64,000 nt of DNA from an uncultured Gammaproteobacteria bacterium (GTDB lineage: Bacteria; Patescibacteriota; Patescibacteriia; Magasanikbacterales; JBBTXJ01): the NCBI GenBank assembly GCA_964610305.1, contig CAZSVL010000002.1:40522-104521 (forward strand). Reading direction: 5' to 3'. Below, piece after piece: positions 3,500 to 60,436 of this stretch. Position 1 is the first letter of the stretch, and each line of letters starts with the position of its first letter. The notes below the pieces were generated by a model. It was not told the origin of the DNA and did no database searches. It was given only the letters and a program-made list of their open reading frames with translations. The position numbers and the translations under genes were made by a program.

Positions 3500-3943
3500 T
3501 TAGTTTCCTTTTAGAAGCCGTCTAGCCTCTCTGTCGGTGTCTCTTTTCTTTATGCTCTCACGTTTATCGTGAAGCTTCTTTCCCTTTGCTAGACCCAGTT
3601 GAATCTTAATAAGATTCCCCTTTATATAAACAGAAATTGGCACAATTGTCAAGCCCTGTTCATTCACTTTTCCTCTTAAATGTTCCACTTCTCTTTTGTG
3701 CAGGAGCAGTGGTCTTGTGCGCTCTGGATCATAAGATTTGTCTGCCGCAGGCGCGTAGGCATTAACATACATATTAAGAAGCACGGGCCCCTCTTGTGTG
3801 AAGGCGGCGTGCGCTCCTTTAAGTGAAACATTGCCCGCTTTTATAGATTTAACTTCTGCTCCGGTGAGGGCTATACCCGCTTCAATTACCTGCAGAATTT
3901 CGTAATCATGACGTGCCCGTTTGTTTGTTGCAAGATTTTTCAT
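3500..3943 (-). CDS. smpB: SsrA-binding protein SmpB
   Basis: MKNLATNKRARHDYEILQVIEAGIALTGAEVKSIKAGNVSL... is the canonical SmpB N-terminus, with TRPLLLHKREV near the C-terminus. Confidence 0.85.
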   Translation of the reverse strand: MKNLATNKRARHDYEILQVIEAGIALTGAEVKSIKAGNVSLKGAHAAFTQEGPVLLNMYVNAYAPAADKSYDPERTRPLLLHKREVEHLRGKVNEQGLTIVPISVYIKGNLIKIQLGLAKGKKLHDKRESIKKRDTDREARRLLKGN

Positions 3944-3956
3944 TATACTTATAGCA

Positions 3957-4982
3957 ATGAAACCGCATTTAATAACTATTAGCACCAAAACCATTCTTAA
4001 GATCGTGGTGACGGTGCTCTTGTTGTGGCTTCTCTATATTATACGCGATATTGTATTACTTTTTTTTGTCGCGGTGATTTTGGCTTCTTTGATAGAACCG
4101 TGGGCAGCGTGGTGGGAGCATCGGAAGGTTCCGCGGTCGCTTTCCATCTTGGCCATCTATGTTGTTTTAGTGGGAATTGCAGCTGCTGTGGTGGTTTTGC
4201 TCTTGCCGCCTATTGTACGCGAGGGTCAGGGGCTCGTCAAAAATTTAAATACGTATTGGGAGGCAACGGCCGGATCAATTGGGGATCTTCAGCACTTTAG
4301 CACTGATTTTAATATCTTAGAGAGGGCAAAAGGTCTGCTTTTGCCAAGCTCTGGCGCGGTAGGGAAAACACTGGGCGGCATTGTTGCCACGGTGAGTGGT
4401 GTTTTTGGCGGCGTATTTTCATTGCTTCTTGTGTTGGTGCTGGCATTTTATTTGGTAGTAGAAGAGGAGAGTGCTGGCCGATGGATACGGGCTTTTGCTC
4501 CAGATCACTATCAGCCTTTTTTAACGCGGCTTTTCAAAAAAATGCAGCGTAAGCTGGGAAGTTGGCTGAGGGCTCAGCTTATCTTAAGCTTAATCGTGGG
4601 AGTCTTTACCTACGTTGGCCTTACTATTTTAGGAGTTGAGTACGCCTTAGTGCTTGCCCTTATTGCCGCGGTGCTAGAGTTAGTGCCGTACGTTGGGCCG
4701 GTGCTCTCGGCGGTTCCGGCATTATTTTTGGCGTTTACTCAAACAGGAGGCTGGACATTGCCTCTTGCCGTGCTTGCGCTTTTTGTGGTTATTCAGCAAT
4801 TAGAAAATGATCTTTTGGTGCCGCGCGTAATGCAAAAGGCTGTGGGGCTCAATCCGGTGGTGAGTATTATGGCTATTTTAATTGGAGCTCGTCTTGCTGG
4901 TATTGTAGGAGCACTTTTGGCTATTCCTGTGGCCACCGTCATCTACGTATTTACTGAGCAGATGAGATCTGAGCGGGCATAA
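3957..4982 (+). CDS. AI-2E family transporter (PerM/YdiK-like, UPF0118)
   Basis: About 8 TM helices and conserved AI-2E blocks (LLLWLLY..., LIAAVLELVPYVGP, FLAFTQTGGW). The start M is chosen to avoid overlapping smpB. Confidence 0.6.
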   Translation: MKPHLITISTKTILKIVVTVLLLWLLYIIRDIVLLFFVAVILASLIEPWAAWWEHRKVPRSLSILAIYVVLVGIAAAVVVLLLPPIVREGQGLVKNLNTYWEATAGSIGDLQHFSTDFNILERAKGLLLPSSGAVGKTLGGIVATVSGVFGGVFSLLLVLVLAFYLVVEEESAGRWIRAFAPDHYQPFLTRLFKKMQRKLGSWLRAQLILSLIVGVFTYVGLTILGVEYALVLALIAAVLELVPYVGPVLSAVPALFLAFTQTGGWTLPLAVLALFVVIQQLENDLLVPRVMQKAVGLNPVVSIMAILIGARLAGIVGALLAIPVATVIYVFTEQMRSERA

Positions 4983-12299: not shown

Positions 12300-12363
12300 A
12301 GTAACAAGTAACAAAAAACGCACAGTGCGAAAAATTGTTACTTGTTACTTGTTACTTGTTAAT
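12300..12363. repeat. heptamer iteron region: AGTAACA x2, palindrome CGCACAGTGCG, then inverted TGTTACT x4
   Basis: Read directly. Shares the core CAAGTWACAAAAAAC with the 8116 copy. Confidence 0.7.
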
Positions 12364-12370
12364 TTATAAT
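12342..12370 (+). promoter_or_regulatory. promoter TTGTTA-17-TATAAT built from the inverted heptamers
   Basis: -10 TATAAT at 12365-12370. -35 TTGTTA at 12342-12347, which is the first inverted repeat. Confidence 0.5.
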
Positions 12371-12376
12371 AAGAGC

Positions 12377-13753
12377 GTGTCGCTATCAGTACGACAACTT
12401 TTGGGTATTTTAGCTCTTTGTGTTTTGGGGGCGCTTTTGGCCGTGTACGCACCGGCCTTGGTGTTTGTGTTGCTGGTTTTGGCAATGGTGGTTTGGCTTT
12501 TGTCTTTTTCTGCACACGTAGGATGGTATATCCTACTTTTTTTATATCCGCTTTTGGGGTGGAGCGTTTCTCTCTCATCATTTGATTTAACTAAAGGAAC
12601 ATTTCTTGCCTCTTTTAACGCGCCGGTTGCTGATTTTTGGGCGCTTATCTTGATAACGGCAGTAGGTATTTGGATGCTTAGAGAAGATATGCGCGGTAGA
12701 GCAGTGCCTTTGCGCGCGCCGCGAGCCATGTGGTTTGGTTTTTTTGTGCTGTCTGCGCTTGTTTCATTATTCAATGCTCCTGCCACAGAGGTTTTTGATG
12801 GCTTCAGGTTTATTATTCGTAACCTGATCTTTATTTATGTGGCCTATGTGGTTTTGCCCACAGCCGCGCTCCGTAATCAGGATCAGATAAAAAAGAGCGT
12901 TGGGGTGCTATTAAGCATGGGAGTTGTGCTTATGGGTTGGGGTATTGCTTCTTTGTTTGTGCTGCAGCCGTTTTGGGGAGTGTGGCGGCGGGTGAGCCCG
13001 TTTGGCATTGGTGGTTGGGCGCCGCTTGGACTTTTTCATAATGATTTGGCAGAAGTGATGGTGGTGATGGTGCCTTTGGCTCTGTGGTGGTATGCAAATG
13101 AAAAACGCGATCATCTAAAACGTATAGCGCTGCTTTATGTAATCTTAATGACAACGCTAACGCTGCTTACCTTTAGTAGAACCGCGTGGATTGTGCTTTT
13201 TGTACAGTTGCTTGTCTATTGGATGTTGAGCGCTCAGAAAGTCAGACAGAGAGCCGCTCGTATTATAAGTCCTGTAGCTTTGATGTTGTTGATTCCCATT
13301 GGTGCGTACATGGTATTTTTTTCTGCTTCAGACTATGTGGCGTCTTCTACTTCATCAAGATTAGACATGACGCGTATTGCTCTTATGTCTTTTGCAGAGC
13401 ATCCTTTTATTGGTAATGGCGCGGGCAGACACATAGATTTAATTGCGGGAGCAGAGGCGTTTAGGATTGTGTATGGTCCGGCTTTTGATGCTCATGGGGT
13501 TATTCAAAAATTGCTCTCTGAGCAAGGTCTTTTTGGACTGATTTCCTTTTTTGCCTTTGTGCTTTGGCTTGTTTATGATATGGTTTTTGCGTATAAGCAT
13601 CAAAGAGCAGGTTCCTATAAACAGCTTTTGTTAGCACTGTGCGCCGTGGCTATTGGAGCGGTGGTGTATCAGCTATTTAATACGCAGTACTATACGGCCA
13701 AGATGTGGGTCCCTGTAGGTTTTGCGTACGCCGCATCTAGATTAAAACATTAA
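12377..13753 (+). CDS. Wzy_C/O-antigen-ligase-like polytopic membrane protein
   Basis: Multi-TM, with the O-antigen-ligase block (LTFSRTAWIVLFVQLL). The start is uncertain: GTG 12377, while the track's TTG 12335 would translate the repeats. Confidence 0.55.
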   Translation: MSLSVRQLLGILALCVLGALLAVYAPALVFVLLVLAMVVWLLSFSAHVGWYILLFLYPLLGWSVSLSSFDLTKGTFLASFNAPVADFWALILITAVGIWMLREDMRGRAVPLRAPRAMWFGFFVLSALVSLFNAPATEVFDGFRFIIRNLIFIYVAYVVLPTAALRNQDQIKKSVGVLLSMGVVLMGWGIASLFVLQPFWGVWRRVSPFGIGGWAPLGLFHNDLAEVMVVMVPLALWWYANEKRDHLKRIALLYVILMTTLTLLTFSRTAWIVLFVQLLVYWMLSAQKVRQRAARIISPVALMLLIPIGAYMVFFSASDYVASSTSSRLDMTRIALMSFAEHPFIGNGAGRHIDLIAGAEAFRIVYGPAFDAHGVIQKLLSEQGLFGLISFFAFVLWLVYDMVFAYKHQRAGSYKQLLLALCAVAIGAVVYQLFNTQYYTAKMWVPVGFAYAASRLKH

Positions 13754-14980: not shown

Positions 14981-17041
14981 ATGAGTCTAGCGGTACTTAA
15001 TTCCTATACGCCGCACATAGAGCGCCTTTTAAAGGGCGCGATTTTGATTAATTTGGCAACTCCGTTGATTGTTTTTTTTGATATTTTGCCGTATCCCTTT
15101 GTTACCTCTAAAGTATTTTTTTTGCAGATTCTTATTTCTTTGAGCGCCTTTTTTTATGGACTACTTCTTTTTTTAGAGCCTAAGAAGTATTGGCCGCGCG
15201 TTGGGCTCTTGCATGGCGCTGTTATTTTGTATGGATGTGTGATGCTGCTATCTACTCTCTTTAGTGTAGACTCGGCCAGATCCTTGTGGGCAAATCATAC
15301 GCGCATGCTGGGGAGTTTTGCGATGCTGCATTACGGTATTTTGTTTTGGATAGTGAGTGTGCTCTATGATGAGAAATTTTCTTCTCTTTTAAGGCGTGTG
15401 CTATTAGGGGTAATTTTTGCTGTTGGTGTTTTAGCGCTTTTGGAATGGGCTGGTGTTTTATTTCCCAATAGAGAGTGGCAGCGCATTGGCAGCACCGTGG
15501 GAAGCCCATTTGGCCTTTCTCTTTTAGCGCTTTATGGCGTGGCGCTCAGTATTTTAGAATTTTATAAGAAAAAGAGGTTGTTAGCAGCAGTGCTGAGCAT
15601 TTTTTTTATTGCTCTGGTGTTTTTGACCGGAACGCGAGGAGCTGTTGTTGCAATGGTTGGCGGCGCTTTGTTTGTTGGTTTAGTGTTGGTATTGAAAAAG
15701 TCGTTGTTGAATCTTTCGCAAAAAAAAGCCGCTTTGCTTGTCGGGGCAGTATCACTTCTGTTTGTGGTCGGTCTATTTGGTGGTGTTGCAGTCTCCAAGT
15801 TGCCTGCGTTTGATACGCTCAGTAGTGCCGCAAGCATTGGATCGCGCCTTACGGCATGGGATATATCTGTTAAGGCAGCACTAAGCAAGCCGCTCCTTGG
15901 CTACGGGCCGTTTACTTTTTTGTATGCCTTTAACGAGTTTTATGACCCCGCGGCAATTAGTTTTGCTTTTGATGAAACCTGGTTTGATAATGCCCACAAC
16001 TATTTTTTTGAGCAGCTTAGCAGCATGGGAATGGTAGGATTTTTTGTGTACATAGGCATTTTTGCGCTCGCCCTATTTTATTGTTGGCGATTAGCAAAAG
16101 ACGGCAGGCAATCTTTAGCTTTGGCCTATGCCACTATTGTGGTAATGCACGCGCTTTGGTTGGTTTTTGAGTTTGAAGAAGCCAGTTCACTACTTGTTTT
16201 TGTGATAATTCTAGGCCTTCTTGCCGCATCACAGAAAAAAATGTTATCTGAGAAAAAAGTATCAAAAGCGCTTCCTCTTGTTTTAATGGTTGCCGCTCTG
16301 CTTATGGGACGATCAAGCATACGATCAGTTCAAGCAGCTGCTGCGCACCAGCAGGCACTCAATTATGCGCGCAGCGGAGAGGTGGGGGGATGGTTTGAGG
16401 CGCAAAAAAAAGCGCTCAGCAGTGCCGGACCTTACGCTCACAGTATGAGGCTAGATATGGCGCGTGTATTTTCAGAATTTGAGCTTCCGCCAGACGCATC
16501 TTCTGTGCCGCTTGTTGATGCAGTATTTACTTTTATGCGCTCGCAAATGGCGTTGTCTCAAGAGGATCGCCCTTTGGATCCGTTTGCTTATCTTTTTGAT
16601 GCCGATATTGCCCGCAGAAGGTATACTATATTTAGGGCTACGGCCGATGCTGACAGGGCTCTGCAACTTTATGAAAAAGCGCAAGAAGTCGCGCCGCGTA
16701 GGCCACAGCTTTTCTTAAGTAGTGCCTTTGCCTCTATTGATTTTAAAGAGTTTGATGAGGCAAAAAAGGAAGCGTACGCAGCTTTAGCATTAGCTCCAGA
16801 AGATGAGCGTGTGGCTAAGTTGTTGGCAGATGTTCTAGTGGGGATTTATCAAGACGGTGAGGACAAGGCTCTCTTAGAAGAAGCGCTTGGTTTGTATGAG
16901 CGTGTTTCTATTAAACGTCCACCTGGAACGTACGATGCTTTGTACAAGAGTTGGTCAACGGCGCTGCAGCTAGCCGGACAGCCAGAAAAAGCAGCTGAAA
17001 TGTTAGGCAATATTGATAATGAAAATACTACTCGTCAATAA
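14981..17041 (+). CDS. O-antigen-ligase-like membrane protein with C-terminal TPR-like helical domain
   Basis: About 10 N-terminal TM helices with the Wzy_C block (FLTGTRGAVVAM), then a soluble C-terminal ~280-aa TPR-like repeat region. Confidence 0.6.
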   Translation: MSLAVLNSYTPHIERLLKGAILINLATPLIVFFDILPYPFVTSKVFFLQILISLSAFFYGLLLFLEPKKYWPRVGLLHGAVILYGCVMLLSTLFSVDSARSLWANHTRMLGSFAMLHYGILFWIVSVLYDEKFSSLLRRVLLGVIFAVGVLALLEWAGVLFPNREWQRIGSTVGSPFGLSLLALYGVALSILEFYKKKRLLAAVLSIFFIALVFLTGTRGAVVAMVGGALFVGLVLVLKKSLLNLSQKKAALLVGAVSLLFVVGLFGGVAVSKLPAFDTLSSAASIGSRLTAWDISVKAALSKPLLGYGPFTFLYAFNEFYDPAAISFAFDETWFDNAHNYFFEQLSSMGMVGFFVYIGIFALALFYCWRLAKDGRQSLALAYATIVVMHALWLVFEFEEASSLLVFVIILGLLAASQKKMLSEKKVSKALPLVLMVAALLMGRSSIRSVQAAAAHQQALNYARSGEVGGWFEAQKKALSSAGPYAHSMRLDMARVFSEFELPPDASSVPLVDAVFTFMRSQMALSQEDRPLDPFAYLFDADIARRRYTIFRATADADRALQLYEKAQEVAPRRPQLFLSSAFASIDFKEFDEAKKEAYAALALAPEDERVAKLLADVLVGIYQDGEDKALLEEALGLYERVSIKRPPGTYDALYKSWSTALQLAGQPEKAAEMLGNIDNENTTRQ

Positions 17042-19376
17042 ATTTTGGTATCCACGCGGCGGAGCCGAGCATTATGTTTTGGCGTTGCGTGAGCAGCTAA
17101 AAGCAAAAGGTCACACCGTGATTGAATTTGGGATGCATCATCATTTGAATATAAAAACGCCGTTTGATACATATTTTGTATCAGAATTGGATTTTAAAAA
17201 ACGCGGCGGGATAAAAGATAGTCTGCACAAGCTGATGCGGGTTATCTATTCTCCGCAAGCGCGCAAGAAGTTTGCTCAGCTTTTGGTAGATGAGGCGCCT
17301 GATGTTATTCATATTCATAACATTTATCACCAACTCTCTCCGTCAATTTTGCTTGCTGCTGAGCGTGCGCGGATTCCTGTTGTGATGACGGCCCATGATT
17401 ACAAGATTACCAATCCTAACTATAGAATGTTTCACCGTGGGCAGGTGTGTGAGCATAGTGATCATGGCAGATTTTGGGAGGCGCTCAGATATAGGTGCAT
17501 GGACACCTGGAGCGCCAGCTTTGCAGTTATGGTGGAGAGCTATGTGCATGCTTTTTTGGGTACGTACAGACGAGCCGTTACGCGTATTGTGAGCCCTAGC
17601 AATTTTTTGATTGATTTAGCGGTGAGTCGTGGCGCGCCCAGAAAATGGTTTATCAAAATTCCTACGGGCATTGCTATGCCCGCTATGCCAAAAGAGTTGG
17701 GGCAGCAGGCAGTAGTTTATTTTGGGAGACTCTCTGAAGAAAAAGGATTGGGCGTTTTGCTTGAGGCGGCTAAGATGGCTCGTACCACGCCATTTGTAAT
17801 TGTTGGCAGAGGGCCCATGGAAGCGGCTTTGAGATCTCGCGCGGGAGAGCTTGGATTGCGCAACGTTACTTTTGCGGGTTTTTTGCAGGGTGAGAGTCTG
17901 TGGAAAGTGGTGGCTGGCGCAAAAGCTGTGGTGGTGCCCACCCTTAGTTTTGAGAATTACCCATTGTCTGTGCTTGAGGCTCAGGCTTTGGGCACTATTG
18001 TTATAGCGAGTGCGGTAGGCGGTCTGCCAGAGCAAATAGTTAATGGGGAGACGGGTTTTTTGGTTCCTCCCGGAGATGCCGTAGAGCTAGCTAAAGCGGT
18101 GGAGCGCGCCATGGAAATGGATGAGGATGATCTAGCGCACATGGAGGCGGCAGCGAGAGCGGGAGTGATGCGCGTTAATGGTCATGACGAGCATATAAGC
18201 AGAATAGAGGCTTTATATAAGAGCGTGCAAGATACTGCTGCAGACGATGATAAATCCTTGCGCGTTGCTGTTATTGGGGCTAAAGGGTATCCACCGTCAT
18301 ATGGTGGCGTAGAACAGCACGTAGCGGCTCTAGGGCGCGTTTTTGCAGGGCTGGGGCACAAGGTGGTTATCTATAGTAGGTCATGGTATAGCCAAAAAAA
18401 TCAAAATGGCGATGATCCTGTAATAAGTCGCCGCCTCTGGAGCCCCAAGATAAATGGGCTGGATACACTTTATCATTCGTTTGCCAGTACGCTGTCGGCT
18501 TTGGTGGGAGATTATGATGTGGTGCATTTTCATGGAGTAGGCCCTGCTGTTTTTGCCTTTTTTGTGCGTTTGTTTTCAAAAGCTAAGGTGATAGTAACTG
18601 TTCATTCGCTTAACAGAATGCATCCTCAGTGGGGATTTTTTGCTCGGCTGTGGCTTCGTTTTGGAGAATGGGCCGCCGCAATATTTGCCCACGAGACTAT
18701 TGTTGTCTCCAGAGATTTAAGATCATATTTTAGAGGAAAACATAAAGCTGCCCGGATCCACTTTATTCCTAATGGCGTGGCGGTGAGAGAGAAAAAACCA
18801 GCGGCATCTTTGCTTGGTAGATGGGGCTTGCAGGAAGCTTCTTATGTTGTGGTGGTGGCGCGATTGGTAAAATCAAAACGTGTAGATGAAATTTTGCAGG
18901 CGTGGCGGTCCCTGCGAGCGGCAGATAGAAAGGATTGGAAGCTTGTCATTGTGGGAGATCAAAGTTTTTCATCTGATTATGTTGACGAGCTTAAAGATTT
19001 GGCGGGGAAAGATAAAAGTATTATTTTTACGGGCTGGCAGGAGGGCGAGGCACTGCAGGCCTTAATTGCTCATGCCCAAGCCTTGGTTTCTGCGAGCGCT
19101 TCTGAAGGGTTGCCTCTGACGCTGCTAGAAGCAAGTGCTTATGGGGTGGGCGCACTAGTCTCAGATATTGCTCCTCATAGAGAGATAGTTAAAGTAGACG
19201 CCGCGCGTTTTGCTGTGGGAGATGTGCCAGCGCTTGGCGCAGCCCTCAAACGGCTTTTAACTGACCCTGGATGGTTTGAGCAACTAGGAGAGCAAAATAA
19301 AAAACTCGTGGCGAGCGAGTATCAATGGGAGTCGGTAGCAGACAAAACGCTTAGTTTATACTATGATAGGCTTTAA
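17013..19376 (+). CDS. tandem two-domain GT4 glycosyltransferase (GT4-GT4 fusion)
   Basis: Two complete GT4 units (...ENYPLSVLEAQALGTIVIASAVGGLPE... and ...EGLPLTLLEASAYGVGALVSDIAPHRE...). Confidence 0.65.
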   Translation: MIMKILLVNKFWYPRGGAEHYVLALREQLKAKGHTVIEFGMHHHLNIKTPFDTYFVSELDFKKRGGIKDSLHKLMRVIYSPQARKKFAQLLVDEAPDVIHIHNIYHQLSPSILLAAERARIPVVMTAHDYKITNPNYRMFHRGQVCEHSDHGRFWEALRYRCMDTWSASFAVMVESYVHAFLGTYRRAVTRIVSPSNFLIDLAVSRGAPRKWFIKIPTGIAMPAMPKELGQQAVVYFGRLSEEKGLGVLLEAAKMARTTPFVIVGRGPMEAALRSRAGELGLRNVTFAGFLQGESLWKVVAGAKAVVVPTLSFENYPLSVLEAQALGTIVIASAVGGLPEQIVNGETGFLVPPGDAVELAKAVERAMEMDEDDLAHMEAAARAGVMRVNGHDEHISRIEALYKSVQDTAADDDKSLRVAVIGAKGYPPSYGGVEQHVAALGRVFAGLGHKVVIYSRSWYSQKNQNGDDPVISRRLWSPKINGLDTLYHSFASTLSALVGDYDVVHFHGVGPAVFAFFVRLFSKAKVIVTVHSLNRMHPQWGFFARLWLRFGEWAAAIFAHETIVVSRDLRSYFRGKHKAARIHFIPNGVAVREKKPAASLLGRWGLQEASYVVVVARLVKSKRVDEILQAWRSLRAADRKDWKLVIVGDQSFSSDYVDELKDLAGKDKSIIFTGWQEGEALQALIAHAQALVSASASEGLPLTLLEASAYGVGALVSDIAPHREIVKVDAARFAVGDVPALGAALKRLLTDPGWFEQLGEQNKKLVASEYQWESVADKTLSLYYDRL

Positions 19377-19675
19377 TCTTCTGGAGATTCAGAGAGGTCA
19401 TCTTCTTTCTTAGATTTTGCTGTTTTACTGCTTGGACTATAGAGTCTGCCGGCAATATTCCACCGGTCTACATACTGACCGATGCCTTTTTTTTGCGATT
19501 TTTTACTAATGGTGCTTTTTTGAGACCATTTAACAAGGCTTTCAAAGTTTATTTTGTATCGCCCCGCTACAACGATGTAGGAGAGCTCATCATCCAAAAT
19601 AGCACGTCTTATGGTTTGCTGACTCACTCCAAAGAGTTTTGCAGCTTCTGAGACTGATACGCGGATGATATTCAT
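19373..19675 (-). CDS. helix-turn-helix DNA-binding protein, excisionase/MerR-type HTH family
   Basis: VSEAAKLFGVSQQTIRRAILDDEL is a typical HTH_17/Xis-family motif. Basic C-terminal tail. Confidence 0.6.
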   Translation of the reverse strand: MNIIRVSVSEAAKLFGVSQQTIRRAILDDELSYIVVAGRYKINFESLVKWSQKSTISKKSQKKGIGQYVDRWNIAGRLYSPSSKTAKSKKEDDLSESPED

Positions 19676-19680
19676 AGCTG

Positions 19681-19704
19681 TTTGTATAGACTAGTGTATA
19701 CAAA
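19681..19704. promoter_or_regulatory. 24-bp near-palindromic operator TTTGTATA-N8-TATACAAA, copy 1, abutting the HTH gene start
   Basis: Read directly. It begins 6 nt upstream of the HTH ATG. Confidence 0.55.
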
Positions 19705-19793
19705 CAGCGTATATTACTAGCGTTTTTGTGTCAATTTGGACCATCAATGAATATTAGATTGAAACTGTGGATAAGTTGACCTAAATAGGCCTC

Positions 19794-19817
19794 TTTGTAT
19801 ACACTAGTCTATACAAA
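19794..19817. promoter_or_regulatory. second copy of the 24-bp operator, the exact reverse complement of copy 1
   Basis: TTTGTATACACTAGTCTATACAAA. The two copies are about 110 bp apart centre to centre. Confidence 0.55.
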
Positions 19818-19958
19818 TAGAGCTGGTAACAGGTAATGAGGGGGTGAGTATTAGTACATTTTCTTTTTTCTCTTGTTGCCCGTTATCGGGCACCTGTTTC
19901 CAATAAGTTATCCCCACCCGTTATCAAAAGCCGTGATTAGCTACAGCTATACCCAAGG

Positions 19959-20510
19959 ATGAAAAATAAGGCTCACGATCACTTGCTGCTTTTCAGGCTT
20001 CAGACCAAACAAGATAAACAAGCCTTTACGCAGCTCTACGATAAATACTACGCCGATATTCATCGGTTTGTTTTGTTTAAGGTGCCGACCGCAGAGATAG
20101 CCGACGATATAGTGGCGCAGGTGTTTGAAGGGCTTTGGATGTATGTGGTACAAAGAAAGCGTATCATTCACTTTAGGGCGCTGATGTATCGCATAGCAAG
20201 AAATAGCGTTGCTGAGCATTATCGCAGGGAAGGTAAAACTATGGATGTAGCCATAGAGTACGTGGAATTTGATGTAGCGCAGGATAATGACGGGTTGCTG
20301 GGAGTAGCGCGAGAAGATTTGTTGGCCGCGTTTGTGCAGCTTACCGAGGATCAAGCGGAGCTCATACAACTAAGATATATAGAAGGATTGCCCATAAAGG
20401 TGGTGGCAGAAGTAGTGGGAAAGAGCCGTGGCGCGGTGAGTGTTAGCTTGGGGAGGGCGCGGGCTAGTCTCAAACGCATTTTGGACGCAGATGTCCACAA
20501 GAAAAAATAA
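19959..20510 (+). CDS. ECF-type RNA polymerase sigma factor (sigma-70 regions 2 and 4)
   Basis: Region 2 (FTQLYDKYYADIHRFVLFKV...) and region 4 HTH (GLPIKVVAEVVGKSRGAVSVSLGRAR). Confidence 0.75.
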   Translation: MKNKAHDHLLLFRLQTKQDKQAFTQLYDKYYADIHRFVLFKVPTAEIADDIVAQVFEGLWMYVVQRKRIIHFRALMYRIARNSVAEHYRREGKTMDVAIEYVEFDVAQDNDGLLGVAREDLLAAFVQLTEDQAELIQLRYIEGLPIKVVAEVVGKSRGAVSVSLGRARASLKRILDADVHKKK

Positions 20511-20531: not shown

Positions 20532-21539
20532 ATGGCGATTAGCCAAAAACAATTAAAGGATTCTCTTGCTGCATTGGGCAGTGATTTTTCTGCAGTTGAT
20601 GAAAAGAGAAGTAAGCAAACGCGAGAGCGTGTGTTGGCTTTTATGGATAACAATCCTATTGCCACTGCGCCAAGCGCATACGAAAGATTGAGATTGGCAG
20701 GAAAGTATATAATGCCGTCAGGCGTCTGGCATTATGCCTTGCAGCCTATAATGGTGGTGGTGCTTGCCTTTACGCTGGTTACCGGCGGTTGGGTGACATC
20801 GGTATCTGCCGCTAGTGGGAGTCTGCCAGGAGATGCGCTTTATACGGTAAAATTGGTTTCGGAAAAAACGCAGCTGCAACTTGCATACTGGTCTGATGAT
20901 CCGCTGGTGGTAACAGGGCTGCAGGTATCTTTTGCAAAAAGAAGGATAGATGAAATAAAAGCGGTGAGCGAGCTCTCGCCGGGAGACAAGGAGGAGCGAA
21001 TAGACAAAGCAGTGAGAGGTTTTAAAAAAGGAATCGCGGCAGTGCGCGAATCATTAGAGACAGCGGCCGATAATAAGCCTGAGCAGGTTGCGGCGATCGC
21101 CAGAAAAATACAGGATCAGGGCACTGATTTGGTAGAAGCCATAGAGCAGGCGGAACAAGCGTTGCCTCAAGATGTGGCTCAAGAGCTTGCCAGTGCAAAA
21201 GAAGTTGTGGAAGATGCAACGGATCAGGCGGTAGAGGTTATTGTGGAGAGTCGGCAACAGGGAGATCAGTTGGTTTCTTCAGACGATATAGCCAGTGTAA
21301 TTGTTGGAAAGCTGGATCGCGCTACGGTAAGCGCAGAGCCAAAAGAAGCTCTCTTGAGCGAGAAAGTTGTGCAAAAGCATCTAAAAGACGGAGAATTTGA
21401 GCAAGCGCTGGACGAGGTAAAACGCATGCGCGCTTTGGTAAAAGAGCAAACTGCGCAACAAGAAGAGCAGGAGCCAAGCTTGCCAGGTGTGCTTATAAGG
21501 GTGATAGAGAACGTAACAAGCACTATAATAGGCGAATAA
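20532..21539 (+). CDS. putative anti-sigma factor (single-pass membrane protein with acidic coiled-coil extracytoplasmic domain)
   Basis: Immediately downstream of the ECF sigma. Cytoplasmic N-terminus, one TM (IMVVVLAFTLVTGGW), then LYTVKL... Confidence 0.5.
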   Translation: MAISQKQLKDSLAALGSDFSAVDEKRSKQTRERVLAFMDNNPIATAPSAYERLRLAGKYIMPSGVWHYALQPIMVVVLAFTLVTGGWVTSVSAASGSLPGDALYTVKLVSEKTQLQLAYWSDDPLVVTGLQVSFAKRRIDEIKAVSELSPGDKEERIDKAVRGFKKGIAAVRESLETAADNKPEQVAAIARKIQDQGTDLVEAIEQAEQALPQDVAQELASAKEVVEDATDQAVEVIVESRQQGDQLVSSDDIASVIVGKLDRATVSAEPKEALLSEKVVQKHLKDGEFEQALDEVKRMRALVKEQTAQQEEQEPSLPGVLIRVIENVTSTIIGE

Positions 21540-21758: not shown

Positions 21759-24700
21759 ATGACTACAGCAATAGCATATTCTAGAAAAGCATTTACGGGT
21801 GTTGTTGTTGCGTTGACGGTACTTTGGTCAATTGGTGCGGCCGCACTGATTTCTCCACTAGTAGCACAAAGCGCAGTCGCTCTAGCAGATCTCTCAGACG
21901 GAGATTTGATCATGACTGACGGCGCTGCAGCAGGGGCTACGGTATACGTGCACAACGACGGTAAAAAATACCCATTCCCTAACGCCAAGATCTACGCATC
22001 ATGGTACGGGGACGACTTTTCAAGCGTGATGCGCATTTCTGCGGAAGACATGGGATCCCTTGCATGGGGCTCCAACATGCTCTACCGCCCAGGCTCACGA
22101 TTGATTAAAGTTCCAGACGATCCAAAGGTGTACGCTGTTTTGCCAGGAGGCACAGTAGCGTGGGTCAAGGATGAAGCAACAGCACAGAAGTTTTACGGAG
22201 ACGCATGGGCAGGTCGTGTAGACGACTTGTTGGCATCTCTATTTGTAGCTGACTACACCAATGATCCAAACATGGATCTAACCGCTGATTCAAACTACCC
22301 TGACGGTACACTTATTAAAGTAGATGATGGCGAAGTAGCTGCATCTGCTTTGATGTACTACTACATTGACGGTGGTATGAAGCGCGCAGTGGGAGACGAC
22401 GCAATGGGACAGTTCAACTTGGACTACGCCATTGAAGTTTCCTCTGACGACGCAGCAGCATTTGACGACGGCGACGCTATGGGATCAGGAGAATTCCTTA
22501 ACCCAGTAGCCGTACAGGAAGGTACAACCACTCCTGGAGCAGACGCACCAGACGAGGTGGTAGCAGACGGAGACCTTTCCTTTAGTCTAGCCGCAGACAG
22601 CCCAACTGCTCGTCTTCTTGACGGGACAGGACTCAACGCAGTGTTGAAGGTGGCTGTAAGTGGTGAGGGTAACATCGACGAGCTAACCTTTAAGAAGGTT
22701 GGAACAACCGCTAACACCAACATTACTGGTATGCGCGTTGTTGACAGTTCTGGCGCACGTCTTGGTAACGTAGTTTCTTCAATCAATGAGGATGACACGG
22801 TTACCTTTACAGGACTTGACCACGACGTTGATGGAAGCGACTCACTTGAATTGCAAGTGGATCTAAACACCTCAGCAGGCGCTTCTGACGCACGCTTTGA
22901 GTTGACTGGTGTTGACTCTGGCGCAAGCGTATCAGGACTTCCTGTTGCAGGATTCTTGCTAGACGTTAAAGACGGTTCAACTGTTGTAACCACGGTCACC
23001 TTTGACCTTGATGGTCCAGCGGATAACTCCAGTGTTCAGCTTGGTAATGAGATTGAAATATTCAACTTCACACTTCGCGACACCGGAAGTAAAGAAAAGT
23101 CAACTTTTGACGGTATAACTCTTTACAACAACGGTTCTGTTACTGATGAAGACGTAGAGGACTACAAGCTTGTAGCTCCAAACGGCGACATCTTGGCAAC
23201 CGTACAGCAAGACGGCAAGTGGGTAGTATTTGACGGCTTGGACTACGAGCTGATCAAGGGTGCTACCAAGTCATTTAAGATCAAGGCTACACCTAAGACA
23301 GGTGCAACCAGGACTATTGACTTGCAGCTCCAAAATGACTACGACTTGAAAGTAATGGGCAATACTTCTGCTCACTACATCCTAGCTACCGCTGACGGTA
23401 GCGGAACTAACGACTCAACCTTCCCTGTAGGTGACGCTTCTGGCTACACCGACATGACTTTGGCTTCAGGTTCTCTAACCTGGAACAAGTCTGGAGAGAA
23501 CCCAACCTCTAACTACGCCGTAGGAGAGGCTGACGTAATCTTGGGAAGCTTTGACGTTAAAGCAACTGGTGAAGATATTGAAATCAGAAAAGTAAGCTTT
23601 GCCGTTCTTGAAAGCACTTCTGGTTCAACTTCAACTTCACTTGACGGAAGCGTCTTTATTAAGGCTGACGGCCAGACACTCTACAGCGCAGCATTTGCAC
23701 GTAGCATGTTTACCGGAACCAACACAGACGTAACTGAGTCAAGTAAGTCACTAAGCACCTTCCTAACCGTTCCTGCGGGAGAAACCAAACGTATTGACAT
23801 TGTTGGTACTATTGGATCCGCTGCAGCTTCAACGGACAGCTACGGTGCCGTGTTTAATGTTGCTCAGAACAAGCGCCTAACTACGGGCGACTTGCAGACT
23901 CCAACAGCTAGCATTGTTAACGCAGCAGTACGCTCTGTGAAAGCAGCAGCACTGACGGTTAACAACATTACCATGGCCGCTTCTGGAACCTACAAGATTG
24001 TTGCAGGAACCAACGGCGCGCTTGTTGGTAAGTATGTGCTTGACGCCAGCTCTGGTGGTGAGGACGTACGCGTTAACAGCATTGTAGTAAGCCAGGGTAA
24101 CGGTGGTTCCGCCGCAAGCGTAACTGACTGGAGCAACTGGCGCCTCTACAGAGTTGAAGCTGATGGATCAGAGACTGCTCTGGACACCAGCAACGATACT
24201 AACACGGGTGCTGCTAACATGACCTTTACCTTGATCACTCCTGAAGTGATTGGTAAGTCAGACGTAGACGGAGTTACCTACCACTTGCGTGCTAACCTTG
24301 CTTCCGCCGCTGGCGCAAGCGAGACCGCCGTATTTGTTGTGGGTAATGAAGGAAGCGCAGCTGTGGGAGATGTTACTGGAAACTCAGTGACGGAGAGCGT
24401 ACTTAATGGTACTTCAACGGGAAGCACCTCACTTGGAAGCACGGTAATTATTACCGCTTCTGGTGGAGCAATTAAGATTGCTGTTGATTCCGCAAACGCA
24501 CCGGTGAAGAACTCTCTGGTTAACATTGGTACTACCAATTACAACCTGGGTGCCTTTACTATCAAGGCAGAAGATGAAGATCAGAAAGTTACTGACCTTG
24601 AGGTGAGCTTGTTTGGAACAGCAAGTCTAAACGATGTTAGAAACGTCCGCCTATACTTGGATGACGCTTCAACACCACTTGCTCAGGTAACACAGCTAAC

Positions 24701-25529
24701 CACGGGTGGAGACAATGCTGCTACCGGATATCACACATGGACTTCTGCTAGCGAGTTGTTCAGAATTGAAGCTGGACAGACACGCCGCGTGAAATTCCTT
24801 GCAGACATTGCAGGAGCTGGTACTGCTAAGCTTGGTAATGATGTTCGCCTTGAGATCCGCGACGCAAGTCACGTATCCTCAACCGGTGTCAGCACCAACA
24901 CAGCATCAACCAAGACCGTGCTTAACACCAACTCAATCACTCACACCATTCAGCCATTTACCGTAACGGTAGCAGAGGCAAGCCCTGCATATCCTGCTTC
25001 TAACTTGGAGAAGGACGTGTCAACGGGATCCCTCTTGGCGCAGTTTAAGATCACTAACTCTGGTTCTGCTACAATCACTACCACGCAGTTTAAGATCTTT
25101 AACAACGGTGCATGTACGTTTGATTCAGACGGTGCAACCACCTGTAACTCTACCGGTGTTCAGTACTCACTGAAGACTTCAGCTGAGAACGCAAACTCCA
25201 CAACCAACTTGGTATCTGGAGAGGACACTGAAGAGAGCTCTGGTGTAATTACCTTCTCTGGTGGAGGACTTGCATCATCAGCTAACATTGTAATTGCCGC
25301 AGGACGCTACAGAACCTTTGGTGTGTATGTGTCTGGTACTAACGATGGATTTGCTAAGGGTGCTAGCTGGCAGCTCTCTGTTGCAACTGAAGGTGATATG
25401 ACCTTTAGCGTGCAAGATGAGAACTTGGGTTATGACGGTAACGTTGACGGTAATCAGGACGACTCTAACACGGGTCTAAAGATGACTGGTCAGCCTAGCT
25501 TGCCATCTGTCACAGACAGCGTAACCTAA
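21759..25529 (+). CDS. giant secreted surface protein (1256 aa; acidic, S/T/G/D/V-rich tandem beta-sandwich repeats), putative S-layer or adhesin
   Basis: Signal peptide (VVVALTVLWSIGAAALISPLVAQSAVA), repetitive Ig-like composition, strong terminator after the stop. Confidence 0.65.
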   Translation: MTTAIAYSRKAFTGVVVALTVLWSIGAAALISPLVAQSAVALADLSDGDLIMTDGAAAGATVYVHNDGKKYPFPNAKIYASWYGDDFSSVMRISAEDMGSLAWGSNMLYRPGSRLIKVPDDPKVYAVLPGGTVAWVKDEATAQKFYGDAWAGRVDDLLASLFVADYTNDPNMDLTADSNYPDGTLIKVDDGEVAASALMYYYIDGGMKRAVGDDAMGQFNLDYAIEVSSDDAAAFDDGDAMGSGEFLNPVAVQEGTTTPGADAPDEVVADGDLSFSLAADSPTARLLDGTGLNAVLKVAVSGEGNIDELTFKKVGTTANTNITGMRVVDSSGARLGNVVSSINEDDTVTFTGLDHDVDGSDSLELQVDLNTSAGASDARFELTGVDSGASVSGLPVAGFLLDVKDGSTVVTTVTFDLDGPADNSSVQLGNEIEIFNFTLRDTGSKEKSTFDGITLYNNGSVTDEDVEDYKLVAPNGDILATVQQDGKWVVFDGLDYELIKGATKSFKIKATPKTGATRTIDLQLQNDYDLKVMGNTSAHYILATADGSGTNDSTFPVGDASGYTDMTLASGSLTWNKSGENPTSNYAVGEADVILGSFDVKATGEDIEIRKVSFAVLESTSGSTSTSLDGSVFIKADGQTLYSAAFARSMFTGTNTDVTESSKSLSTFLTVPAGETKRIDIVGTIGSAAASTDSYGAVFNVAQNKRLTTGDLQTPTASIVNAAVRSVKAAALTVNNITMAASGTYKIVAGTNGALVGKYVLDASSGGEDVRVNSIVVSQGNGGSAASVTDWSNWRLYRVEADGSETALDTSNDTNTGAANMTFTLITPEVIGKSDVDGVTYHLRANLASAAGASETAVFVVGNEGSAAVGDVTGNSVTESVLNGTSTGSTSLGSTVIITASGGAIKIAVDSANAPVKNSLVNIGTTNYNLGAFTIKAEDEDQKVTDLEVSLFGTASLNDVRNVRLYLDDASTPLAQVTQLTTGGDNAATGYHTWTSASELFRIEAGQTRRVKFLADIAGAGTAKLGNDVRLEIRDASHVSSTGVSTNTASTKTVLNTNSITHTIQPFTVTVAEASPAYPASNLEKDVSTGSLLAQFKITNSGSATITTTQFKIFNNGACTFDSDGATTCNSTGVQYSLKTSAENANSTTNLVSGEDTEESSGVITFSGGGLASSANIVIAAGRYRTFGVYVSGTNDGFAKGASWQLSVATEGDMTFSVQDENLGYDGNVDGNQDDSNTGLKMTGQPSLPSVTDSVT

Positions 25530-29719: not shown

Positions 29720-29776
29720 TAAAGTAGTCGTCTGTTTTGTGCAGGCGGCTTTTTGTTTTGGTCGAGCTTTGCTACT

Positions 29777-32038
29777 ATGGGAGCCATGAGTAGAAATCTA
29801 CCAATAAAACAGCGGATAGTACAAGCTTTACTGCTCCTTGTGTTGGCTACGCCACTTGTCATGTTGCCAAGTACATTTTATTTCCCTTTTTCTACCACAA
29901 AGGCTTGGTTTTTTAGAGCTGTCATTCTTGCGACCCTTTTTGCTTGTGTATTTTTTTCTAAAGACTTGCGCGCCATCAAGCCAAAAAATAATCTGGTGGC
30001 ATTTGCCGTTTTATTTTTTTTGTTAATTTACGCTGTAACCACCGCTACGAGCATAGATGTGCATAGATCTTTCTGGGGGAATTACGAGAGGATGATGGGT
30101 CTTGTTACTATGATATATTTTGTGGTTTATTTCTTTTTATTGAGAACCTTCTTTTTTGATAAACAATCGTGGCGCTGGTTTTGGGGTATTTTTGGTGGTG
30201 TTGGTATTGTGGTTTTTTTGCTTGGTTTGTATCAAAGCTACAATCCTGACTTTTTGATTGGTAGGCAATTTGGTGGAAACCACGGATACCGTGAAAACAT
30301 TACGCTCGGCAATCCGCTTTATGTTGGGCAATATAGCGTGTATCTCCTTTTTTTGGGCTTGTATTGGCTTAAAGATACATTTGATAGATGGCGCATAGAT
30401 AAATCACGTGTTAAAGAGCTGTGGTTTTGGGGGGCCGCAGTGTTCTCTAGTCTTGGTTTGTTATATTTGTCTCAAACAAGAAGTTCGTTTGTTGGACTAG
30501 TAATGGCGGTTTTTTGTGGCTGCGCTTTGATGGCTTTGCTTCATCAAAAAAAGAGGGATAGGCGCATCTATTTGATTGCTTTTGTTCTTATGAGTTTGGT
30601 GGCTGCTTTTATTTTAAGTCCTCTGAGTCAATCGGTGACCGCTCATCTGGGAAAAGTAAATCGGTTTACCGACTTAAATTTTTTGTCCTCTTCAAACATC
30701 AATCGTATACATGCATGGAAGACGGCCGCAACAGCATGGAAAGACCGCGCTTTTCTAGGTTGGGGTCCTGGCACTTTTTCTATTGCTTATAATCAGTATT
30801 TTGATAGTAGGCGATTAATTAAACGAGACTTTACCGACACGTGGTTTGACAGCTCTCATAATCAATACCTAGACGCGCTATCAGAGCAAGGTGTTTTGGG
30901 GTTTGTTGCGCTGCTTTTTTTGTATGCAAGTGTGCTGATAGGACTTATGGTTGCTTGCCGAAGAGGACATATCAAGCTCATTGATATGATGATGCTTGTG
31001 GGACTGTTGATAACGGTGGGTGTTACTAATATATTTGTTTTTGAACAAGTTACTTCATATTTCAGTCTTTTTTCTTTTTTGGCATTTGTTAGTTTTATTA
31101 TAGATGGACAAAAAAATGACTTCGTTCTTAATCGTTCCTCAGTGCCGATCCGCGGGGCACTTCTTTACGGATCAGTTATAATTTTGTCAGTGGTCTCGTT
31201 TTACACCGTGATAATACCTGCGCGTGCAAACGCTACGGTACTCTCCTCACTTCTGCAAGTGGTACGCACAGGATCTGTTGAAGACCTCTTGCTCTCAGCG
31301 GAGCAGGCAACGCGTAGCGGCTTTGCTCACCATGAGCATAACTATTCAAAATTAGCAGAGCTTTTACTCAAGACGGCCTACATACCGCAGGAGCATCTGC
31401 AGCCCATGATTTCGCTTTACCGCTTCACTATTGAAGGGTTGCAAGAGCAAATGAAAAAACACCCAAGAGATGTATCTTTGCCTATGCTGATAGCGCCCGT
31501 CTTGCATGATGCTTATAGGGTGGCGCCGGCTCTATTTCCGCGTGGCAGAGAGCGCGGCGATCAATATTTTGTTAAGGCTTCTGAGCTTTCTCCCAATCGG
31601 CAAGAGATATTGGCCTATTGGGGTAATCAGATTATGCAGTCAGGCAATTTAAAGGATGCGCGGGAGCCGTATGTAAGAGCGCTGGCGATGGCTCCAAGCT
31701 CTCCAATTTCATTTAATTTGTATGCGGATTATGTAATGGCAATAGAAGAAAATCCCAGCAAGGCACTTCATTTATATGAGTGGGGGATTAAAGAACGTTT
31801 GGTAGACATAAACAGTAAACGCTTGGTGGACATGGTGCGAGCTGTTCAGAGCGCTCATGGTAAGCAGCAGGCTTTAGAGCGGCTTGATGTGTTGATCTAT
31901 TGCTTTACACATGGTGGTGATAGGTCGGACTGTGGCGTTTATGGGCGCACAGACCCTGTTTATGGGCGCATAGATCCGATTCCTTCTTTTATGGGCCCGC
32001 TTTACGACCTAAGAGAAGAATTAGTGAGCAGCACTTGA
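29777..32038 (+). CDS. O-antigen-ligase-like membrane protein with C-terminal TPR-like domain (paralog 1 of 3 tandem)
   Basis: Wzy_C-type core (LSQTRSSFVGLVMAV) plus a helical C-terminal domain. The start is ambiguous (29753-29786). Confidence 0.6.
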   Translation: MGAMSRNLPIKQRIVQALLLLVLATPLVMLPSTFYFPFSTTKAWFFRAVILATLFACVFFSKDLRAIKPKNNLVAFAVLFFLLIYAVTTATSIDVHRSFWGNYERMMGLVTMIYFVVYFFLLRTFFFDKQSWRWFWGIFGGVGIVVFLLGLYQSYNPDFLIGRQFGGNHGYRENITLGNPLYVGQYSVYLLFLGLYWLKDTFDRWRIDKSRVKELWFWGAAVFSSLGLLYLSQTRSSFVGLVMAVFCGCALMALLHQKKRDRRIYLIAFVLMSLVAAFILSPLSQSVTAHLGKVNRFTDLNFLSSSNINRIHAWKTAATAWKDRAFLGWGPGTFSIAYNQYFDSRRLIKRDFTDTWFDSSHNQYLDALSEQGVLGFVALLFLYASVLIGLMVACRRGHIKLIDMMMLVGLLITVGVTNIFVFEQVTSYFSLFSFLAFVSFIIDGQKNDFVLNRSSVPIRGALLYGSVIILSVVSFYTVIIPARANATVLSSLLQVVRTGSVEDLLLSAEQATRSGFAHHEHNYSKLAELLLKTAYIPQEHLQPMISLYRFTIEGLQEQMKKHPRDVSLPMLIAPVLHDAYRVAPALFPRGRERGDQYFVKASELSPNRQEILAYWGNQIMQSGNLKDAREPYVRALAMAPSSPISFNLYADYVMAIEENPSKALHLYEWGIKERLVDINSKRLVDMVRAVQSAHGKQQALERLDVLIYCFTHGGDRSDCGVYGRTDPVYGRIDPIPSFMGPLYDLREELVSST

Positions 32039-55822: not shown

Positions 55823-57153
55823 GAAGGAGAATTTTGTCCAGGACTGTTTGGTGGTGTTTGGTTGCTAGGAGGGGGTGTTGATTGTTGGTTTGGCGCTGCT
55901 TGTGCCACTTTTTTTGTTTTACGGTGATGAGAAACACTGTAGGCTATTGAGCCGCCGGCAATGAGGAGGATCAGACCAACGGCAGTAGCAAAGAGTGTGT
56001 TTTTGTTGGCAGAAAAGAAATTTAAAACCTCAAAACTAACGTCTCTTTTGTTGCTTTGATGAACACCATATGAAAGTTGGCCTGTAATGTAATACGTGCC
56101 TGCGTTTTCTGCCCTGAACGTGTGGGTAAATGATTGAGAATCGCTCACGGGAACAAAAAGGGCATCAGTAGAGGCAGTATCAATGAGAACCTCATCGTGG
56201 TATATGTCAAAAATCATCTTTGCGTCGACGCCACTTTCACCTACGTTTTCTGCTGCTGCATTTATTCTAACAAGTTCTCCTTGTCTGTATTCATCTTTCT
56301 CTACCGTAAATTCTGATAGATTAACCTCCTGCGCCAGGCTTCCTTTTGGAAAGACGCGAAAGCCAGAGATTTTTTCTATGATGGGATTATTGTCTTCGTC
56401 ATAGAAAACTACGGTGGCTTCATAAGAGCCTACGTCAAGCTCAAGATCAGTTTGTGCGGTTACCACCTGCCGCGTAAAAGCACCAATTATAGGTATGTTT
56501 TCAGCCTGTACACGCGCATTAAAAATAAAGTCTGGATTTTCTTTATCAATTACCGTGAGCTGAATCAGAGATGGGCGTGCTGCTACGTTACCGGTATTAT
56601 TCATAATAAAACGAAAGTCAATGTTGCGACCAACTTCTGAATTGTTGACTGAAATGTCCGAAATGTCGTAGATTACGCGCTCGTCATTAGTTACATGAAA
56701 AACAATAGTTCCTTGCGCGCCTGCGTACACTTTTACGGTAGTACCTCCCTGGCTATCGTCTGCTGCGCTTGCGGGTGGAATTACGGTTCCGGTAACGGTG
56801 GCGTGATACGTTCCGGCAGCCAGGTCTCTTGGCTCTATAAAAAATTCAAAGTTGGTCATGCGATCTCCCGGCTCAAATCCAACCGTCATGTCATGTTTTG
56901 GTTTTATGTATTGGGCCGCTGGGCCGCCAATTTCAACACTAATTTTTTCACTTCCATCAGTGCCGCCACGTGTAAAAAGAACAAAACCAGGAACTGATGA
57001 TCCTGAGAGAACATTATCTGCTCTAAATTGGGCCGGTGTGATACCAAAGGCCAACGTAGATTGCGGAAAGGCAGCTGTAAGAAGTAGCAAACTGACAGCT
57101 GCACAGAAAAAAAGTATCTTAAAAAAAAGGTCCTTTCTCAAAATATTTATCAT
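55816..57153 (-). CDS. cell-surface protein with signal peptide, beta-sandwich repeats, C-terminal TM anchor and Pro/Gln/Ser-rich tail
   Basis: N-terminal signal, mature end ...AFGITPAQF, C-terminal TM (LFATAVGLILLIAGGSIAY). Paralog of 57166-58095. Confidence 0.55.
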   Translation of the reverse strand: MINILRKDLFFKILFFCAAVSLLLLTAAFPQSTLAFGITPAQFRADNVLSGSSVPGFVLFTRGGTDGSEKISVEIGGPAAQYIKPKHDMTVGFEPGDRMTNFEFFIEPRDLAAGTYHATVTGTVIPPASAADDSQGGTTVKVYAGAQGTIVFHVTNDERVIYDISDISVNNSEVGRNIDFRFIMNNTGNVAARPSLIQLTVIDKENPDFIFNARVQAENIPIIGAFTRQVVTAQTDLELDVGSYEATVVFYDEDNNPIIEKISGFRVFPKGSLAQEVNLSEFTVEKDEYRQGELVRINAAAENVGESGVDAKMIFDIYHDEVLIDTASTDALFVPVSDSQSFTHTFRAENAGTYYITGQLSYGVHQSNKRDVSFEVLNFFSANKNTLFATAVGLILLIAGGSIAYSVSHHRKTKKVAQAAPNQQSTPPPSNQTPPNSPGQNSPSQ

Positions 57154-60389: not shown

Positions 60390-60436
60390 CATTTCACTTC
60401 TTCTTTTTTTTGTAAATAATTTTTGATGTGGATAAG

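Follow-up and report, generated by a model that had tools for sequence, protein, structure and literature searches.

A small HTH_17 protein and its 24-bp palindromic operators: a probable autoregulatory module beside an ECF sigma factor operon in Patescibacteria

GlnR autoregulates glnRA via two adjacent operators. Together with TnrA, this Bacillus protein is described as MerR-like, the two proteins binding palindromes as homodimers without a coiled coil and having a functional C-terminal tail (PMC5859096). Palindromic operators bound by symmetric dimers are also the rule in the classical MerR family, and a separate BldC-like class has been defined as small MerR-like winged-helix proteins without a coiled coil; BldC itself, from Streptomyces, is monomeric and assembles head-to-tail along direct repeats whose number varies (PMC5859096). 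Here we report on the gene for a 100-amino-acid helix-turn-helix (HTH) protein, and on two 24-bp palindromes upstream of it, in a 64-kb stretch of DNA from an uncultured member of the Patescibacteria (contig CAZSVL010000002.1, positions 40,522 to 104,521; hereafter the window). Negative autoregulation by a dimer covering the transcription start is, judged by comparison with related loci, the best explanation of this arrangement and one that we consider probable. To our knowledge, experiments have so far revealed almost nothing about how transcription is regulated in the tiny-celled Patescibacteria (Candidate Phyla Radiation, CPR), which are mostly uncultured. In the literature we found no paper on this HTH family or mentioning DUF5667, the family of a protein encoded nearby, and none that joined 'ECF sigma' (extracytoplasmic function sigma factors) with Parcubacteria.

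The gene, its candidate promoter and the two palindromes, named O1 and O2, are arranged as follows.

19373..19675, minus strand: HTH gene, 100 aa, with an ATG start (open reading frame and translation)
19681-19704, no strand assigned: O1, the proximal operator TTTGTATAGACTAGTGTATACAAA, between the -10 and the ATG; extended palindrome 19677-19708
19706..19734, minus strand: candidate sigma-70-type promoter of the HTH gene, with -35 TTGACA (19729-19734), a 17-nt spacer and -10 TACGCT (19706-19711)
19794-19817, no strand assigned: O2, the distal operator TTTGTATACACTAGTCTATACAAA, the exact reverse complement of O1 and 113 bp from it start-to-start

A sequence-only reading of the window had described the gene as carrying duplicated 24-bp palindromic operators, one abutting the start codon and the other, its exact reverse complement, about 110 bp upstream. 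Both palindromes are real. Each 24-mer is itself palindromic at 22 of 24 positions, and in O1 the palindrome extends to 16+16 nt with 94% complementarity. The proximal copy does stand directly before the ATG, although 5 nt (19676-19680) separate the two. Copies of the 24-mer with up to 3 mismatches are not expected by chance, as none occurred in 100 shuffles.

Orthologous loci were then compared, with 3-10 kb of sequence examined on either side of the gene in each. The comparison covered 69 modelled loci and 80 more from a metagenome scan seeded with a variant subfamily, which gave 134 non-redundant loci in total. The operator consensus is TTTGTATAC-N6-GTATACAAA. In a weight matrix built from the orthologous operator sites, the arms TTTGTATA / TATACAAA carry 1.5-1.9 bits per position, and the centre, A-n-T-A-n-T, is weaker. 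With this matrix O1 and O2 scored 40.7 bits each, while the next best 24-mer in the window scored 1.5 bits and 20 mononucleotide shuffles, scored on one strand, reached no more than 10.2 bits. At a threshold of 15 bits, 147 of 154 matches lay within 400 bp upstream of an orthologue, a region that makes up 4% of the 659 kb searched; the other seven also adjoin an orthologue and reflect start-codon miscalls or longer upstream regions. No operator copies were found elsewhere in the approximately 630 kb of orthologue flanks. At least one operator was present in 68 of the 69 modelled loci (one in 10, two in 31, three in 26 and four in 1), so that 58 of the 69 have two to four. These data strongly support the view that the 24-mers act as operators of the HTH promoter and do not belong to a scattered repeat.

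A relative that is 86% identical, L002, preserves both operators and the promoter blocks amid intervening DNA that has diverged. Its distal operator is flipped relative to that of the window. This is expected, because the sole asymmetric positions of the operator, 9 and 16, are degenerate (0.3 bits). Although O2 is indeed the exact reverse complement of O1, this relation, as judged from the aligned sites, carries no information.

Covariation of residue 20 with position 6 of the operator half-sites ties the protein to the palindrome. Across the 134 loci, half-sites next to proteins with glutamine at residue 20 (Q-type) had A at this position in 344 cases, C in 13, G in 13 and T in 32. With arginine (R-type) it was C in 36 of 36 half-sites, and with lysine (K-type) C in 9 and A in 1; a single locus with leucine had G in 3 and T in 1. 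All R- and K-type loci with a detectable operator have C as the majority base at position 6, and no such Q-type locus does. In a neighbour-joining tree that was built without the helix columns, the residue-20 class changes at least six times; for example, an R/C locus is nested among Q/A loci, and Q/A loci are nested among R/K loci. Glutamine with adenine, and arginine or lysine with the guanine opposite C, are standard pairs in the recognition of bases by side chains. The covariation strongly supports a reading in which the HTH protein itself recognises the 24-bp palindrome, with residue 20 directed to base pair 6. Among the natural variants, Q pairs with GTATAC half-sites and R or K with GTCTAC. 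If this reading is true, a Q20R or Q20K protein would prefer TTTGTCTAC...GTAGACAAA.

The geometry of the promoter is what gives O1 its probable function. The -10 of the HTH promoter lies one base from O1, and the predicted transcription start, at about 19699, falls inside the operator. The leader of about 24 nt has, as read from the sequence, no Shine-Dalgarno element, and a scan of 19200-20200 with Rfam gave no match. Neither TTGACA nor TAATATACGCTG differs between the window and L002. The gap from the end of the proximal operator to the ATG is 0-12 nt, with a mode of 1 nt, in most of the modelled loci, and in 48 of the 69 it is at most 25 nt. When 48 loci were anchored on the proximal site, TTGACA(AA) emerged as a consensus about 22 nt upstream of it; the -10, (TGn)TAnnnT, comes next and ends at operator position 1. 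A variant class has TGTTAATAT in place of the left half-site, which puts the -10 inside the operator. As in a negatively autoregulated repressor, the cognate operator overlaps the core promoter or start of its own gene in the window and in most Q-type loci.

Two groups of relatives look different in this region. In the R/K-type loci L052, L058, L076, L085, L086 and L088, a single GTCTAC-type operator stands 25-35 nt upstream of a TTGACT or TTGACA -35, away from the start site, and in L082, L087, L090, L092 and L108 the right half-site reads GTTGACAAA, which is -35-like. The missing Shine-Dalgarno element is not special to the HTH gene: of 42 gene starts inspected across the window, the majority have none, and some genes have a TATAAT box a few nucleotides before the ATG, for instance at 57153 (minus strand) and 45007 (plus strand). 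Leaderless or Shine-Dalgarno-independent initiation thus seems to be widespread in this organism.

We next considered the protein itself, which the sequence-only reading had placed in the HTH_17 family. A hidden Markov model search agreed with this assignment. The protein matched Pfam PF12728 (HTH_17; E=7e-8, 33 bits against a cut-off of 27) and NCBIfam TIGR01764 ('excisionase family DNA-binding domain'; 31.4 bits against 28.8), while the MerR models of Pfam stayed below their cut-offs (MerR 19.4 against 28.2 bits, MerR_1 12.2 against 21.6) and AlpA (Phage_AlpA) was absent among the 17 Pfam families that matched at E<=1. A profile search against PDB sequences returned nothing meaningful, the best match being aIF1A at E = 0.3. 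An AlphaFold2 model from a 27-sequence alignment, with a predicted local distance difference test (pLDDT) score of 51, was set aside; the model used was made from a 71-sequence alignment of two subfamilies and has a mean pLDDT of 76.8. In it, residues 1-55 have pLDDT above 90 and a strand-helix-helix-strand-strand-helix topology, as in winged helices. The recognition helix spans approximately residues 19-27 (local sequence V17-S-Q-Q20-T-I-R-R-A-I, window numbering), with Q20 at the N-terminus of the modelled helix 19-27; Q20 is the predicted specificity residue. The model continues with short helices at 44-51, 54-60 and 65-72 and ends in a disordered tail. Beyond the N-terminal MerR/Xis-type winged helix there is a family-specific C-terminal extension of about 35 residues (35-45), in which the motif WSQ.KTT.KNK...GIGQYV..W.I...LYSPS (homologue alignment columns) is conserved. 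The best Foldseek matches in PDB were Pukovnik Xis, BldC, MtaN, RacA, RdfS and GlnR, with template modelling (TM) scores of 0.6-0.8 when normalised to the small target. Profile matches and model together show the 100-aa protein to be a predicted HTH_17 winged-helix DNA binder of the MerR/Xis/BldC fold class.

The mechanism that we propose is the following. Two subunits would bind each TTTGTATAC-N6-GTATACAAA palindrome, and residue 20, at the start of the recognition helix, would read base pair 6 of each half-site. O1 would cover the predicted start and the entire short leader just downstream of TTGACA-17-TACGCT. Its occupancy would block RNA polymerase and so lead to negative autoregulation, since an operator over the start site of the regulator's own promoter is the classical arrangement; the sign of regulation is thus deduced from position. 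The probable contribution of O2, located 113 bp upstream, is cooperative occupancy; a sigma-70-like promoter directed at the neighbouring operon may, in this lineage, be repressed from O2 as well. The sequence-only reading had already taken the palindromes for autoregulatory operators, and site specificity, promoter geometry and protein-DNA covariation strongly support that view. The protein would be a new, uncharacterised member of an already known class, the negatively autoregulated winged-helix repressors.

Several points weigh against this explanation. All of the support is comparative. The -10 TACGCT is weak, matching the consensus at 3 of 6 positions, and the promoter was not called in a consensus scan. 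Q-type loci tolerate C or G at position 6 in 26 of 402 half-sites. The C-terminal half of the AlphaFold2 model is of low confidence, with pLDDT values of 39-77, which limits what it says about the dimer interface, and the Foldseek E-values are all at least 0.01 because the winged-helix domain is small. Finally, the single operator 25-35 nt upstream of the -35 in several R-type relatives is in a more activator-like position, so that the subfamilies may not all share one sign or mode of regulation.

The HTH protein belongs to a large family. Searches gave more than 1400 homologue clusters, of which the best 120 are 63-86% identical; the named ones are from Magasanikbacteria and Uhrbacteria. A search seeded with a divergent member extended to Nomurabacteria, Komeilibacteria, Buchananbacteria and other Parcubacteria, and relatives are encoded in at least 366 species-representative genomes of Patescibacteria. 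In one metagenome-assembled genome (MAG), CAYQNA01, two different copies of the module of HTH and sigma factor genes were seen (L032 and L069); L068 is identical to L069 yet comes from another MAG, which makes mis-binning as likely as true paralogy. Downstream, the stop of the HTH gene overlaps that of the convergent GT4-GT4 (glycosyltransferase) gene (17013..19376) by 4 nt, an overlap that the sequence-only reading had noted and that is kept in L002. Upstream, the gene is divergent to an operon that starts with an ECF sigma factor gene.

19776..19805, plus strand: candidate sigma-70-like promoter toward the ECF operon, of uncertain status, TTGACC-18-TACACT, with the -10 inside O2
19959..20510, plus strand: ECF sigma factor gene, first of the divergent partner operon (Pfam Sigma70_r2, r4_2, ECF)
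20532..21539, plus strand: gene for a DUF5667 protein, second in the operon and in the position of an anti-sigma factor (Pfam DUF5667)
21759..25529, plus strand: third gene of the partner operon, for a 1256-aa protein (no Pfam or NCBIfam family)

The sigma factor has its best NCBIfam match in the BldN family, at 98 bits, which is well under the equivalog cut-off. The HTH gene had been described as wedged between a glycosyltransferase gene and this operon. Its place beside the operon is conserved and not due to chance: the HTH gene is divergent to an ECF sigma homologue in 117 of the 134 loci, and among the 69 modelled loci the DUF5667 gene is second in the operon in 63 and a large protein (approximately 650-1256 aa) is encoded in 49. 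In 87 of 109 relatives (L004-L163) an ECF-type promoter, TGTAAC-N16-CGTCT, precedes the ATG of the sigma gene by 33 nt (30-34). This implies that the sigma mRNA in these relatives is leaderless, with a predicted start at the A of the ATG, 6-7 nt after CGTCT, and that the gene is probably self-transcribed. This promoter is absent from the window (19820-19958) and from L002, where O2 is separated from the sigma ATG by about 140 nt of different sequence. The operators keep their place with respect to the HTH gene, and their distance from the sigma gene varies. An anchoring of the operators to the sigma gene was considered and rejected; their distance to the sigma start is about 120 to more than 1,800 nt, mostly 120-600.

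The conserved pairing bears on what O2 does. If the HTH protein mainly regulated the ECF operon, O2 would be the operator of the TTGACC-18-TACACT promoter that drives it, and autoregulation would be secondary. We regard this as possible though doubtful. Besides the divergent pairing, it has in its favour that both the window and L002 lack the ECF-type promoter of their relatives and have in its place a sigma-70-like promoter with the -10 inside O2 (TTGACT-18-TAGACT in L002). The match of TTGACC-18-TACACT to the consensus is 9 of 12, and a consensus scan found 3 sites in the region against 1.7 expected. However, the relatives with their own TGTAAC-N16-CGTCT promoter have the nearest operator 87-564 nt upstream of it, and the operators follow the HTH gene and not the sigma gene. 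Distal operators elsewhere also lack the TTGAC element, which, when searched for across the relatives, was present beside them only in the window and L002. The more modest proposal that O2 may, in this lineage, control the ECF operon in addition to the HTH gene is likewise held only tentatively. The spacing of O1 and O2 had suggested something else to the sequence-only reading, namely DNA looping over roughly ten helical turns. A repression loop of about 113 bp, in which the protein would bridge the two operators and helical phasing would be the functional constraint, strikes us as rather unlikely. Two to three operators are present in most loci, 113 bp is about 10 x 11.3, and spacings between adjacent operators cluster beyond a jittered null (p = 0.0004), with favoured values of about 33, 57, 66-69, 77-79, 83-84, 100-104 and 123 bp and a signal at 11-11.5 bp (R approximately 0.3). 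The spacings nevertheless range from 31 to 166 bp, and the Rayleigh R at a period of 10.5 bp is 0.10-0.15, which is not significant. Since peaks of equal height stand at 8.9 and 11.5 bp in the periodogram, it gives no evidence of helical phasing, and the 8.9-bp peak points to a few favoured architectures, possibly due to shared ancestry, rather than to the helical repeat. Moreover, a single operator is enough in about 10 Q-type loci and in essentially all R/K-type loci.

Two further readings would separate the palindromes from autoregulation altogether. According to one, they are bound by another factor or act as RNA hairpins, and the HTH gene is a mere neighbour. O1 could indeed form a 16-bp hairpin if it were fully transcribed, and the tie between protein and site comes from comparing sequences. 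The covariation of residue 20 with operator base 6 is hard to reconcile with this reading, which we consider very improbable. What is conserved in the operators is base identity and not pairing, the outer positions carrying 1.5-1.9 bits and the half-sites being kept identical. Upstream operator copies lie outside the HTH transcript, the predicted start inside O1 means that the full hairpin would not be transcribed, and Rfam has no entry matching the region. The other reading, to which we give almost no credence, makes the protein an excisionase or a recombination directionality factor and takes the 24-mers for sites with a recombination or architectural role. It draws on the HTH_17 and NCBIfam 'excisionase family' matches and on the best fold match, which is the Xis protein of mycobacteriophage Pukovnik. 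Against it, no integrase, recombinase or transposase family was matched by open reading frames of at least 150 aa in the window, which bears out the remark in the sequence-only reading that no integrase is present, and none was found in the 20-kb L002 locus. More than 100 genomes of several candidate phyla share the gene order of HTH and ECF operon, and the sites are promoter palindromes and not direct-repeat arrays. The identity of 63-86% over the best 120 of the approximately 1400 homologue clusters fits a vertically inherited core gene. The mobile-element connotation of the family name does not apply here, and on distribution and synteny the HTH gene is best read as a chromosomal regulator of a Patescibacteria-wide family.

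The DNA between the two divergent genes contains other elements. Three GTTATC copies (cccGTTATCggg ... aaGTTATCcccacccGTTATCaaa) lie upstream of the sigma gene at 19868-19925 (plus strand) and are partly kept in L002; they could belong to a replacement sigma promoter of this lineage or to another binding site. A perfect DnaA-box 9-mer, TTATCCACA, is found between O1 and O2 at 19766-19774 (minus strand), next to TTGACC, and is kept in L002; the window has a second perfect copy at 60427-60435 (minus strand). DnaA-box-like 9-mers with at most one mismatch occur at 1.18 per kb in the intergenic regions between HTH and sigma genes against 0.34 per kb in the flanks, a difference of approximately 3.5 fold. 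A perfect box is present in only 7 of about 115 loci, with three in L005.

In the window, the module sits in an unusually large envelope-glycan locus (10341-51950). This contains many GT4 and GT2 enzymes, fused GT4-GT4, GT2-GT4 and GT4-GT4-methyltransferase proteins, a fused GDP-mannose dehydratase/epimerase, a carbamoyltransferase, Bac_transf, and S8 and S26 peptidases. The gene for SmpB is found elsewhere in the window, at 3500-3994 (minus strand). At least five paralogues of Wzy_C (O-antigen-ligase-like) are encoded in the glycan locus:

12335-13753: Wzy_C paralogue
14981-17041: Wzy_C paralogue
29753-32038: Wzy_C paralogue
32080-34392: Wzy_C paralogue
34346-36703: Wzy_C paralogue

The analysis gives a conserved regulator family, its 24-bp operator, the surrounding promoter architecture and a predicted specificity residue, and these predictions are open to tests in vitro or in E. 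coli, for which the organism need not be cultured. Most notable are the conservation across Patescibacteria, the partnership with an ECF sigma module and the clean predicted recognition code. Genes labelled 'excisionase family DNA-binding protein' in these genomes would accordingly be core regulators linked to an ECF sigma module, here within a large envelope-glycan locus, and not markers of mobile elements. A far-reaching extension would be that the HTH protein and the operon of BldN-like ECF sigma factor, DUF5667 protein and giant protein form a Patescibacteria-wide cell-envelope switch, in which the regulator controls the ECF operon here via O2 as well as envelope genes in other parts of the genome, and in which the code of Q with A, R or K with C, and L with G has diversified targets between lineages. 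This is speculative and, in our estimate, improbable as a whole; such a switch would be loosely analogous to the developmental regulators BldC and BldN of Streptomyces.

The described systems compare with the HTH protein as follows. Excisionases such as lambda Xis, Pukovnik Xis (4j2n) and RdfS (8dgl) have the winged-helix fold and belong to the same Pfam and NCBIfam family, and Pukovnik Xis is the best Foldseek match (target-normalised TM 0.78-0.81, root-mean-square deviation 1.5 A over 50 residues). Unlike these recombination directionality factors, the HTH protein has no integrase partner and no att-type direct repeats, its synteny is that of a core gene, and its sites are at a promoter. The classical MerR proteins MtaN, CueR and SoxR share the N-terminal winged helix, with MtaN and CueR among the fold matches. 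However, the 100-aa protein has no long coiled-coil helix or effector domain, only the short helices 54-60 and 65-72, and its promoter has a spacer of 17 nt, the optimal length, with the operator at or after the -10, whereas in classical MerR systems the operator lies inside a spacer of 19-20 nt.

BldC, the founding member of the small MerR-like winged-helix regulators, belongs like the HTH protein to the HTH_17/MerR-like class, and its structures 6ama and 6amk are fold matches with a target-normalised TM of about 0.7. Both proteins are small chromosomal regulators, not recombination factors, and neither has a coiled coil or effector domain. In contrast to those of BldC, the sites here are symmetric palindromes of fixed length in which both half-sites have the same covarying base, and the protein has an extra 35-45 conserved residues. 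GlnR and TnrA are the closest functional analogues: small proteins with a MerR-type winged helix and a short C-terminal tail, the GlnR-DNA complex 7tea ranking 19 among the fold matches. There is no detectable sequence relationship to them, and the C-terminal motif GIGQYV..W.I..LYSPS is unrelated to their tail. The HTH gene also has no glutamine synthetase gene nearby, its partner being the ECF sigma operon, and its 24-bp operator lies downstream of the -10.

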